A stretch of 64,000 nt of DNA from Eledone cirrhosa (taxonomy: Eukaryota): the NCBI GenBank assembly GCA_964016885.1, contig OZ024741.1:104284001-104348000 (forward strand). Reading direction: 5' to 3'. A program made the position numbers and the translations under genes. The notes beneath the pieces are model-generated. The model saw only the letters and a program-made list of their open reading frames with translations, did not search any database and was not told the DNA's origin. The stretch's first letter is position 1; each line of letters begins with the position of its first letter. Below, one piece after another: positions 10,991-57,135 of the stretch.

Positions 10991-11085
10991 GGCGTACCTG
11001 AGGATCTTGCGATTTCAGAGTCAGGTTCGATCATTGCATCGATCGTACCTCGAGCTGGTCGCCAGAGAAACGATTGTAATATGTC
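10991..11085 (+). ncRNA. Hammerhead ribozyme with extended (~62-nt) stem II
   Basis: ggcgtac CTGAGGA tcttgcgat..gtcgccaga GAAA cgattg TA atatgtc. Homologous copies lie at 31290-31384 and 47544-47635. Confidence 0.75.
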
Positions 11086-11129
11086 TAATAAAATTTAATT
11101 CGTTGCACCACTGATTCTCCGTTTCTTAT

Positions 11130-11180
<51 letters not shown>

Positions 11181-47329: not shown

Positions 47330-47388
<59 letters not shown>

Positions 47389-47391
<3 letters not shown>

Positions 47392-47693
47392 GTATTAATA
47401 TGTAAGGGAACAAAGAATCAGTGTTGCATCATATACATATGTTTCATTGTCGATCAGCTCTAGGAACGATCTATTAATGATCGAACCTGACTCTGGAATC
47501 GGAAGCTTCTCAGATATGTTTAGACTCGAGTCTACATGTTAAAACATATTTGAGGAGCTTTCGATTCCAGAGTCAGGTTCGATCATTAATAGATCATTCC
47601 TCGAGCTGATCGACAGTGAAACATATGTAATATGTAATTAAATATGTATATGATGCAATACTGATTCTTTGTTCCCTTATATATTAATACTAT
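47389..47693. repeat. Fold-back palindrome of two head-to-head HHR-bearing pseudo-LTRs
   Basis: Arms ~47389-47527 and ~47528-47693 are centred on tagactc|gagtcta. Cores are TTGAGGA (+) and CTGAGAA (-), each with GAAA catatg TA. Confidence 0.85.
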
Positions 47694-47810
47694 TGATACT
47701 CTGCTCCCCAAGAACATCAAGTGCTCATTCGATATACCGATTATGGACGCACTTTATTTGTACCTTAATACCTATATATATATATATATGTGTGTGTGTG
47801 TCTATACACG

Positions 47811-47846
<36 letters not shown>

Positions 47847-48019
47847 ATAAGTATGGACGAGGTGTCAAATATTCATTAAGTTTGTTCAAATGTGACGCAC
47901 AGAGATCGAACCCGATCGACATACTCCCTCCACAACACCAATCTAAAGAAGTCCTCTGGGGGAATTTTGCCCATCGCTGTCTTTGACAGCATTTAGTTGT
48001 TTTAAGGGCTGTTCTGGCA

Positions 48020-48815
48020 TTTTCCTATGCAGTACAGTATTAATAAATAATCCAACGAAGTCCGTTACTTGCGCCGAGTCAGATGATCCCATAGTGATAT
48101 CAAAATTGTTTTTTCTGTCGGTTCTTGTCCAGAGATGATTATTAAATTCTATTAGGGTTTTACGTACTGTTAGAATTATATTCATTTCTTCACTAGATAG
48201 GTCTGTATGTTTAGACGCGTAGATAAATGCCTTATTAAGTAAGCTAGGGGTAATAGAGGAGTAGTAATTTGCAATATCCATTTGAATGAATTTTTTGTTA
48301 TGTTTTGATTTTATGTTATTAAACTAATCTATAACTTCATTAGTACCGTTCCATAGTTTAAGGTGTGATTTTTCTTTAAGTAGTGGTATAATTCTATCTA
48401 ATATATGCTTGCTAATTATGCCTAAGTCCGATTTAGATGGTGCGATGAGTCTGACTGGTATTTCAATTTCAAAGTTTCTTTTGTGGTCCTTCAGGTTAAT
48501 CTTCGGTTTTCTAGGTATAAAGGGTTCGGTCCTATTTTGAATGCCTAATTTATAAATAATTTCCGAAGCTTCACTATTTAACGTTGAAAGATCTTCATTT
48601 GATGTTATTTTGTAGTTTTTACAGAGTTCTTTCAATATAGGTTATTATATTCGTCCTTTTCCATACCATATAAATTATTTGTTTTGTCAGATTTTACCAG
48701 GATCCTCTTTGTTTTTGCTAGATTGTCTATTTTATTCTTGAAGCCTTTAAGGTACTCCTGGCCGATAAATTGGTTTCTTCTGAATTTAATGTTTTGTATA
48801 ATAGAGATTATTTCA
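48020..48815 (-). mobile_element. PLE RT N-terminal fragment
   Basis: VKSDKTNNLY, LKDHKRNF..RLIAPSKSDLG, MDIANYYSSI, FDITMGSSDSAQVTDFVG. Confidence 0.88.
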
Positions 48816-49233
48816 TTTTTCTTTTTTTTTTCTTCTTCCTACTCATACATACATATATCCTAATTATTTAAATTCTGCATAGCGTCTAAAATAACGCTTT
48901 TTCAGCCCTATACCTCAACCTCATTAGCATACTCATCTTAATAATTTGAAATATCTGACTTTTCTTCTCTTTTCCCTTCACTATCCAAGAAAAACTTGAA
49001 CCGTTAAGGTATCTTTTCTTGGTTATGTCAAAATTTATAAAACAAACTTTGTATTTTATCTGATGAAAGCGTACCAAAGTTTTGATACCCTTGAAATATA
49101 TATAATAGAATAAATATGGTTTTATAAATATAGTTTCCATTTATTTAATATCATTGAAAATCTGTCGAGTGCTCTAAATCAGTTATAAACATTTATATTT
49201 GTTGAATTACCAACAAATTGAATATCCCTTTTG

Positions 49234-49273
<40 letters not shown>

Positions 49274-49279
<6 letters not shown>

Positions 49280-49775
49280 GTGTAATGAGTTCAAATCTCA
49301 AGCATTCCTTTACAATGAAAATAGCTCAAAGAAAAGAATATTTCTGAGCCGTGTAATAAATATAAATCAATATATATGATGAAACACAGATACCAACATA
49401 TCTTTGTTTATATTGCAAAAGGAATTAAGTTAGCTAGAATGAAATATACTAATTATAATATTACAGCCTGCCTACATCGATTTAAAATAATAAATCAACA
49501 CAAACAAACAGTATTGGCAAATGGCCATTTACCAATACTGTTTGTTTGTGTTGATTTATTATTTTAAATCGATGTAGGCAGGCTGTAATATTATAATTAG
49601 TATATTTCATTCTAGCTAACTTAATTCCTTTTGCAATATAAACAAAGATATGTTGGTATCTGTGTTTCATCATATATATTGATTTATATTTATTACACGG
49701 CTCAGAAATATTCTTTTCTTTGAGCTATTTTCATTGTAAAGGAATGCTTGAGATTTGAACTCATTACACTTAATA
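49274..49775. repeat. 502-bp spacer-less palindrome
   Basis: Centre ATGG|CCAT at 49524/49525; one mismatch seen (49518/49531); identical ORFs on both strands in the track. Confidence 0.95.
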
Positions 49776-50215
49776 AAATTGCTCCTTAGGTTGAGCTGAT
49801 AGTAGCCCCATATATACGGCTGTTATTTCTAGCAGTACGCGTATGAGGCTGGCTAGAAACTGTAAAACCATGTGCGTTAAACAGTCTTTTAAAATATTTG
49901 GAAGTGAAGCATATCAATTTGTTCTGGGTGTTTACTGAAGAGAGCGGGACATGATATCCTTACACTTATTTATCTCGAAACATATTTGGATTTTAAAGTT
50001 TAAACTTATCTACGGAACAGGTTTGATTTTGAAATTTAAATTTGTCTAAACACCATGGCCATTTGCCAATACTGTTTGTTTGTGTTGATTTATTATTTTA
50101 AATCGATGTAGGCAGGCTGTAATATTATAATTAGTATATTTCATTCTAGCTAACTTAATTCCTTTTGCAATATAAACAAAGATATGTTGGTATCTGTGTT
50201 TCATCATATATATTG

Positions 50216-50224
<9 letters not shown>
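49521..50224 (+). mobile_element. ORF-less 534-bp partial-tandem double-HHR element (retrozyme/mini-PLE-like)
   Basis: 49521-49690 is repeated at 50055-50224. The unit holds a degenerate HHR (~49790-49890) and an intact HHR (49927-50054). Confidence 0.8.
49927..50054 (+). ncRNA. Intact type I hammerhead ribozyme with very long stem III; GUC at 50044-50046
   Basis: ggtgttta CTGAAGA gag..ctc GAAA [catatttggattttaaagtttaaactt..aggtttgattttgaaatttaaatttg] TC taaacacc: perfect 8-bp stem I. Confidence 0.88.
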
Positions 50225-50250
<26 letters not shown>

Positions 50251-50257
<7 letters not shown>

Positions 50258-50993
50258 AATTTATATCTAGTAACATTTATATACACACAGATGCATATCA
50301 ATGCTAGCAAATATATAGGTTTTGTCTTATTAACAATGTGGTTCAATGCATGGGGTTGCAGAACGATAATATGAGAGACGTAAAATAAGAAAATTATAAA
50401 ATTAACTTACTTACTAAAAAATCACTTCCAACTAATTAGTTTCTGGAATGGAGTAAATATATTTTCCGAAGAAACTTATAGAAAATCATTCCGTCATCAG
50501 GAAAGTCTTTTTCCGTATAGGTCTCCAGGCATAGCGAGGACACTGGAAACTTATTAAAAAAATAATTCAGTGGAATGGAAATAGCGATGCGTGGACTGGA
50601 TTCCAAGCCATTGAAAAAATCACTGCCTCTACGTCCGTGGCAAATTCAAAAAGAATCAATCACGTGACATCGAGGTCAATCAGTGGAAAGCGAGTGGTTA
50701 TTAAGACAGCGGCCAGCTTACTACCATAGTAGCAGTCATGGCCAAATATTGCTCGACAAATGAATTGGAGATAATTATAAGGAATTTATATCTAGTAACA
50801 TTTATATACACACAGATGCATATCAATGCTAGCAAATATATAGGTTTTGTCTTATTAACAATGTGGTTCAATGCATGGGGTTGCAGAACGATAATATGAG
50901 AGACGTAAAATAAGAAAATTATAAAATTAACTTACTTACTAAAAAATCACTTCCAACTAATTAGTTTCTGGAATGGAGTAAATATATTTTCCG

Positions 50994-50995
<2 letters not shown>
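50251..50995 (-). mobile_element. 525-bp-period partial tandem unit with an HHR-like core
   Basis: 50251-50470 is repeated at 50776-50995; on the minus strand CTGATGA cgga..ttcg GAAA at ~50464-50500; no stem I found. Confidence 0.6.
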
Positions 50996-55964: not shown

Positions 55965-57135
55965 TTTGAATTCAGGCACAAGGCCAATGATATTTGGAGA
56001 GGAGAAAGTTGATTATATCGATTCCAGTACTTGTTTGGTAATTTATTTTATCAATCCCAGAAAGATGTAAGATAAAGTTAATCTTGGCGGAATTTTAACT
56101 CGGGTAAAGGGCTGTAACTAAACGTAAATTGCCGTAAATAAAATGTAAAGGACCCATAGTAATTGTTTCTACATTTGGCACAAGGCCAGCAATTTTAAGG
56201 GAAGAATAAATCGATTAAATCTTTATTTCATCGAACCCGTAAGGATGAAAGGCAACGCTAAACTCGATGGGATTTGAACTTAGAACGTAAAGGGCCGCAA
56301 CTATATGCCGTAAAGCATGTTGTCCGATGCACTACCGATACTGCCAATCCACTGTCCTGGAAGGACCCATAATAATGGTTTCTGATTTAGGCACAAGGCC
56401 AGAAATTTGGGGGAGGGGAAAGTCGATTAAATCAATCCCAGTGCATTACTGGTACTTTACTTTATCGACCCCGTAAGGATGAAAAGCAAAGTTAACCTCG
56501 ACGGGAATTGAACTCAGATCGTAAAGGGGCGTAACTGTATGCCACAAAGGAAAGGACCCATAATAATTGTCTACTTTAGGCAAAAAGCCAAACATTTTGG
56601 GGGAAGGGAAAGTCGATTAAATCGACTCCAGTACATTACTGGTACCTTAAAGGGGCGTAACTGTATGCCACAAAGGAAAGGACTCATAATAATTGTCTAC
56701 TTTAGGCAAAAAGCCAAACATTTTGGGGGAAGGGAAAGTCGATTAAATCGACTCTAGTACATTACTGGTACCGTAAAGGGGCGTAACTGTATGCCACAAA
56801 GGAAAGGACCCATAATAATTGTCTACTTTAGGCAAAAAGCCAACCATTTTGGAGGAGGGGAAAGTCGATTAAATCGAATCCAGTACATTACTGGTACCGT
56901 AAAGGGGCGTAACTGTATGCCACAAAGGAAAGGACCCATAATAATTGTCTACTTTAGGCAAAAAGCCAACCATTTTGGGGGAGGGGAAAGTCGATTAAAT
57001 CGACTCCAGTACATTACTGGTACTTTATTTTATCGACCCCGTAAGGATGAAGGGCAAAGTTAACCTCCGCAGGATTTGAACCCAGAACGCAAAGGGCCGT
57101 AACTCTATACCGCTAAGCGTGTTGTCCGACGCTGA
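55965..57135 (-). repeat. Head-to-tail SINE stack containing a 126-bp x4 tandem repeat (~56521-57025)
   Basis: The unit taaaggggcgtaactgtatgccacaaaggaaaggacccat..cattactggtacc recurs at 126-bp spacing. Confidence 0.88.

Follow-up and report, generated by a model that had tools for sequence, protein, structure and literature searches.

Penelope-like elements (PLEs) leave inverted, truncated copies that insert at (TA)n targets and carry a tail at one end only, and the origin of their tandem and inverted structures is treated as an open question (PMC8557442, in the parts used here). Self-priming at the palindromes of their junctions was proposed earlier (PMC3846280, likewise in part). In the portions of PMC11167929 drawn on here, a purified PLE protein cleaves both strands of its target in vitro and extends each of them, two RNA start sites delimit the tail, and ribozyme cleavage is dispensable. 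Animal non-LTR retrozymes, whose size and RNA circles are the subject of the relevant passages of PMC7229834, have been argued to be non-autonomous PLEs (bioRxiv 10.64898/2026.07.22.740005, excerpted).

The locus described here lies in a 64-kb window, by which we mean the whole stretch of DNA that was analysed (64,000 nucleotides); genome-wide statements refer to a 3.0-Gb eukaryotic assembly. The locus contains a repeat with a period of 534 nucleotides, present about 1.3 times (49521-49693 recurs at 50055-50227), preceded by an inverted arm and flanked on both sides by a (TA)n tract. We number unit positions u1-u534 from window position 49521. The original prediction of a tandem, ORF-less unit with a spacer-less 251-bp inverted arm was borne out: the arms 49274-49524 and 49525-49775 abut directly, the doubled unit has no stop-free frame longer than 70 codons, and the centre of the hinge lies 12 nucleotides downstream of the predicted ribozyme cut. 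The 502-bp palindrome had been called perfect; it pairs at 250 of 251 positions, the one mismatch being an A at 49531 of the forward copy, where the inverted arm and the 3’ copy have G, the family base. In the alignment, this A is absent from 21 of the 22 relatives covered. The features are as follows.

49236..49276, no strand: left (TA)n target tract; a TA run stands at the 3’ end in 49/52 non-inverted copies
49274..49524, minus strand: inverted arm, u5 to u255, with its outer end at fixed site B (u255)
49521..49528, no strand: hinge palindrome ATGGCCAT, a hinge in this copy only
49525..50054, plus strand: forward unit u5-u534, non-coding, with the private G-to-A change at 49531
49694..49775, plus strand: 82-nt “tail” between fixed end A (u173-177) and fixed end B (u255)
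49700..49725, plus strand: conserved GCTC-loop-GAGC hairpin directly 3’ of end A, a candidate reverse transcriptase docking site
49781..49796, plus strand: second GCTC-loop-GAGC hairpin directly 3’ of end B, also a candidate docking site
49796..49886, plus strand: hammerhead look-alike (CTGATAG, GAAAC, GTC), unsupported as a ribozyme
49927..50054, plus strand: type I hammerhead with a long (25-pair) stem III, predicted to cut after C50046
50055..50227, plus strand: second partial unit u1-u173, ending at fixed site A
50206..50254, no strand: right (TA)n tract, overlapping the AT-rich end of the element

As far as the animal non-LTR retrozymes are portrayed in the cited parts of PMC7229834 and bioRxiv 10.64898/2026.07.22.740005, the unit resembles them in being low in GC, non-coding and arranged head to tail with a type I hammerhead, in occurring as monomers, short tandems and long arrays, and in its link to PLEs. 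It differs in length (534 nucleotides here and 525-551 in relatives, compared with ~300, which is a typical size rather than a strict criterion) and in stem III, which has 25 pairs rather than 1-2, so that the unit is predicted to cut as a monomer. Furthermore, more than half of the copies, known here as DNA alone, have an inverted arm, unlike those retrozymes. The likeness to Hydra-clade and other EN+ PLEs, within the same limits of PMC8557442 and PMC3846280, extends to partial tandems, an inverted 5’-truncated copy, a tail at one end, (TA)n targets, a hammerhead and palindromes at inverted junctions. In contrast to those elements the unit has no ORF, and its tail is 82 nucleotides long rather than the 30-40 described for them. 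Its non-coding nature, (TA)n targets, two fixed 3’ ends bounding a tail, partial tandems and inverted copies support the proposed assignment to the non-autonomous PLEs or retrozyme-type elements. The family is new and belongs to a known kind, the palindrome being one real instance of known PLE anatomy.

A mirrored sequence of this type could also come from fold-back during library preparation or assembly, or from a DNA rearrangement after insertion. The hinge occurs once in the assembly and is absent from the reads of five runs from other samples, in which the family and its tandem joint are present; such reads are uninformative for a young single insertion. The mirror halts exactly at a fixed end of the family with (TA)n beyond it, the flanks differ and are not mirrored, the palindrome contains a mismatch, and 65 other inverted copies obey the same end rule. 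We therefore consider an artefact or later rearrangement highly improbable and, judged by its anatomy, the mirrored locus is genuine. In the contigs of the other samples, 49539-49574 and 49989-50042 have several-fold higher depth than other parts of the unit, which may point to a more abundant relative with both segments.

Exact patterns of 20-22 letters gave 277, 163 and 80 matches in the genome, with 100, 100 and 80 among the matches listed. From 141 loci we dropped 23 (duplicates of one place, an array, and two loci outside the pattern lists), which left 118 insertions. The family comprises more than 100 dispersed, non-coding copies in (TA)n and also forms two long tandem arrays, of at least 26 kb on C2 and at least 32 kb on C18. 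The arrays, which contain many of the pattern matches, are satellite-like (G000:C2:383780394-383806236 and G000:C18:11547650-11580003), and the C2 array opens with an ordinary site-B end within (TA)n. Copies end at u170-177 (site A) or at u255-257 (site B), 82 nucleotides apart; the non-inverted copies comprise 25 A, 26 B and 1 other, and the end abuts (TA)n in 49/52. A GCTC-loop-GAGC hairpin starts within 5-8 nucleotides past each fixed end, and in an older subfamily the same three letters precede the hairpin. The hairpin at 49700..49725 is conserved, and no compensatory changes were seen in either of the two; we infer that both are candidate docking sites for the reverse transcriptase. The concern that the unit is only the 3’ UTR of a coding PLE was not confirmed, since the 52 non-inverted copies share no PLE ORF upstream of the unit, and the PLE matches in 16 loci are different nested pieces.

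Sixty-six of the 118 insertions examined are inverted. Where both outer ends are standard, one is A and the other B without exception (43/43). Among the outermost ends of the remaining 23 there are five A+B pairs and one A+A pair; each of the others has an end that is non-standard or disrupted. In the older subfamily, 16 of 29 loci are inverted (9 A+B, 1 A+A, 6 non-standard). Every junction differs, so the inversions are separate events. The same one-arm-each rule holds in the neighbouring 525-nt family (11/11, from 20 loci found with a query that ended at one of its two ends) and in a coding Hydra-type PLE (9/9 pairs with both ends found, 10 fetched). The present copy agrees with it: its inverted arm passes site A and ends at site B. 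The original prediction had overlooked that the outer end of the arm is the second fixed start site of the family.

The presence of the rule in three families suggests that both target ends prime on one RNA. Our preferred reading, to which we assign a probability of roughly 65%, is that this is a hammerhead-bearing, non-coding family in (TA)n with two fixed ends, in which a PLE reverse transcriptase primed from both ends of the target, probably on one RNA. Both ends of the cut target would prime, one at each fixed site, with the enzyme provided in trans by a coding PLE, most likely of Hydra type, and with a circle or an uncut multimer as the presumed template. At this locus, one cDNA would have run 703 nucleotides from site A and the other at most 251 nucleotides from site B. 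The ATGGCCAT palindrome, which sits at the base of stem I in a region favoured by cDNA stops, would be where the junction closed, either because the long cDNA folded back or because the two ends annealed. Two same-end inversions (L107 and L216), the lack of compensatory change in the candidate docking hairpins and the lack of DNA similarity between the unit and the two coding families compared count against two-ended priming.

In L1 twin priming, both target ends prime, and the resulting inverted 5’ arm is joined by microhomology. The second site in the present family is, in contrast, fixed, and the two arms share sequence, in many cases over more than one unit; three loci (L084, L100 and L134) resemble the L1 type. 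No twin-priming account of PLE inversions, and no explanation of the one-arm-each rule, was found in the main texts of the open-access papers searched; older PLE papers may contain a twin-priming account. The PAc Poseidon system, as described in the parts of PMC11167929 used here, is similar in that two internal start sites bound the tail, both strands are extended and the main template is uncut RNA, as we propose here. It differs in that genomic copies here use the sites one per arm and their ends merge with the TA target through a few matching letters. In vitro, the top and bottom strands did not differ in start site (PMC11167929, same parts), which counts against our preferred reading.

The two target ends could alternatively have primed on two RNAs held by an asymmetric enzyme pair, with one start site per subunit. 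This would account for the one-arm-each rule equally well, and in some pairs the arms match each other less well than they match other copies: the arm is at least as similar to its partner as to the median other copy in 45/45 testable loci, the partner is closest or tied in 18/45, and in 11/45 more than one tenth of the other copies are nearer to the arm than its partner is, so that two RNAs have to be weighed. We nevertheless regard them as improbable, since the arms of a pair are always of like subfamily though several subfamilies coexist, and since in L118, L129, L032 and L085 no other copy comes anywhere near the similarity between the two arms.

A different origin had been proposed for the palindrome, in which the 5’ end of the RNA is defined by the ribozyme cut, and the cDNA runs off, snaps back on ATGGCCAT and copies the whole arm from itself. 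Hairpin-class junctions, with arm starts no more than 6 nucleotides apart, are indeed in excess (9/66 compared to 1.6 expected, P 3e-5). Six of the nine fold without a spacer, each at a different local palindrome, and in the hairpin cases the short arm always lies inside the range of the long one. The proposal also fits the excess of 5’ ends at u532-u7 and the self-priming suggested for PLEs in the cited part of PMC3846280. Given this excess of spacer-less hairpins, fold-back may have closed the junction of this copy. It does not account for inverted pseudo-LTRs in general: 57/66 inversions are not hairpins, and 26 of the 66, in which neither arm contains the other, lie beyond the reach of self-copying. 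These 26 and a further 31/66, in which the short arm is nested in the long one with starts 15-507 nucleotides away, require a second priming. At this locus, the cDNA had read through the cut site once before, none of the mapped ends coincides with the cut, fold-back alone leaves unexplained why the arm passes A and stops at B, and the arm has G against A in the strand supposedly copied (a later mutation is possible). The genome contains a single ATGGCCAT hairpin, and the idea of a frozen intermediate that explains inverted pseudo-LTRs was not upheld. We thus judge snap-back from a ribozyme-defined end unlikely, and fold-back or annealing at a palindrome a real but minor route.

The original prediction also held that the unit has two hammerheads, of which one survived. 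The sequence 49920-50065 folds as a type I hammerhead whose stem III is long (fold z -2.74) and in which stem I (49927-49934 / 50047-50054) encloses the core elements CTGAAGA (49935-49941), GAAA (49977-49980) and GUC (50044-50046). In a set of 12 hand-picked copies from several subfamilies, whose relatedness inflates such counts, 95.8% of cells pair (slid controls at most 55%), and 5/8 stem I pairs change on both sides. Folding and covariation thus support one real type I hammerhead, as a predicted fold. Its core is canonical in this copy and varies in other subfamilies (compared with the variants in the cited parts of PMC4209133), where some of the variant cores are probably weak. CTGATGT is common in the main copy set; CCGATGA (18) and TTGATGA (16) dominate in the older subfamily (L212-L241), where stem I still covaries. 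Among the Rfam matches listed for the 64-kb window there is no hammerhead, and the hairpin and microsatellite matches are below the gathering score. The second candidate, 49796-49886, lacks G8 and does not fold as a hammerhead; in the older subfamily its first box is kept in 0/31 copies and GAAAC in 0/26, unlike the GAAA and GUC of the first hammerhead, which are retained. Its first letter overlaps a conserved hairpin, which accounts better for the local conservation.

That the ribozyme sets the RNA 5’ end does not hold as a rule: 131 of the 158 passages that reach u45 cross the cut site, and no 5’ end maps to it. Ends are nevertheless enriched just past the ribozyme, the best 10-nt window being u532-u7, the foot of stem I (14 compared to 4.0 expected, scan-corrected p 0.007), a modest excess of cDNA stops 5-15 nucleotides past the cut. 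This excess is compatible both with stalling at the folded ribozyme and with trimming of a cut end; at u7, an AT match with the target may contribute as well. We infer that the template was mostly an uncut multimer or a circle. One locus with 4.7 laps, which differ by 1-4 nucleotides per unit, is compatible with a circular template without proving it; the units of the C2 array, by contrast, differ by 9-43 nucleotides. Some laps within one locus differ by 2-4%, which a circle predicts only by age, and the lap-versus-lap comparison does not separate a circle from a homogeneous multimer.

The coding Hydra-type family is represented by L071 (G000:C2:312470700-312480699), a 4.5-kb inverted duplication of one such PLE with a nested 534-nt unit and flanking DNA at both ends. 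The family is young, with 150 or more near-identical copies, of which many retain an intact 785-aa frame, and it shares the (TA)n target of the 534-nt unit. A C-terminal nuclease, DKT and CxCX5C in its protein fit the Hydra clade, and for the same reason a Naiad label for the neighbouring coding pieces was dropped; these clade labels rest on motifs compared with those in the cited parts of PMC8557442. Pfam returned no families for the three PLE proteins. By blastn, the unit has no DNA similarity to the L071 family or to the 29 loci of the left-flank family, the two coding families compared.

The left flank (47946-49235, minus strand) is a decayed piece of a PLE reverse transcriptase with a DKT motif. 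At 11 of 29 related loci the sequence starts from the same letter, or close to it, next to (TA)n on the 5’ side of the ORF, as would be the case for the 3’ end of an element whose template was an antisense RNA. On the other side, 50246-50995 (minus strand) is an unrelated, young, multi-copy, non-coding hammerhead repeat of period 525, with two fixed ends 123 nucleotides apart and the same one-arm-each rule. The window also contains a decayed palindrome at 47388-47694, which is 79% self-complementary over 334 columns, adjoins a TA tract and has a partial relative near 11000-11174, and a 126-bp tandem repeated four times at 56520-57023 (96% match).

For PLE inverted pseudo-LTRs in general, we give even odds to a model in which two hairpins on a single RNA, probably a circle, mark the start sites where an enzyme pair binds, and this pair primes from both strands at one break; hairpin copies would be the subset closed by fold-back. 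If true, the “tail at one end only” would be an obligatory signature of two-ended priming. It is the one-arm-each rule, more than the palindrome, that is noteworthy here: nearly absolute in three unrelated families of one genome, it yields a precise prediction for the in vitro system already available, and a 534-nt RNA with two marked start sites, together with an intact 785-aa PLE family from the same genome, offers a compact test substrate.
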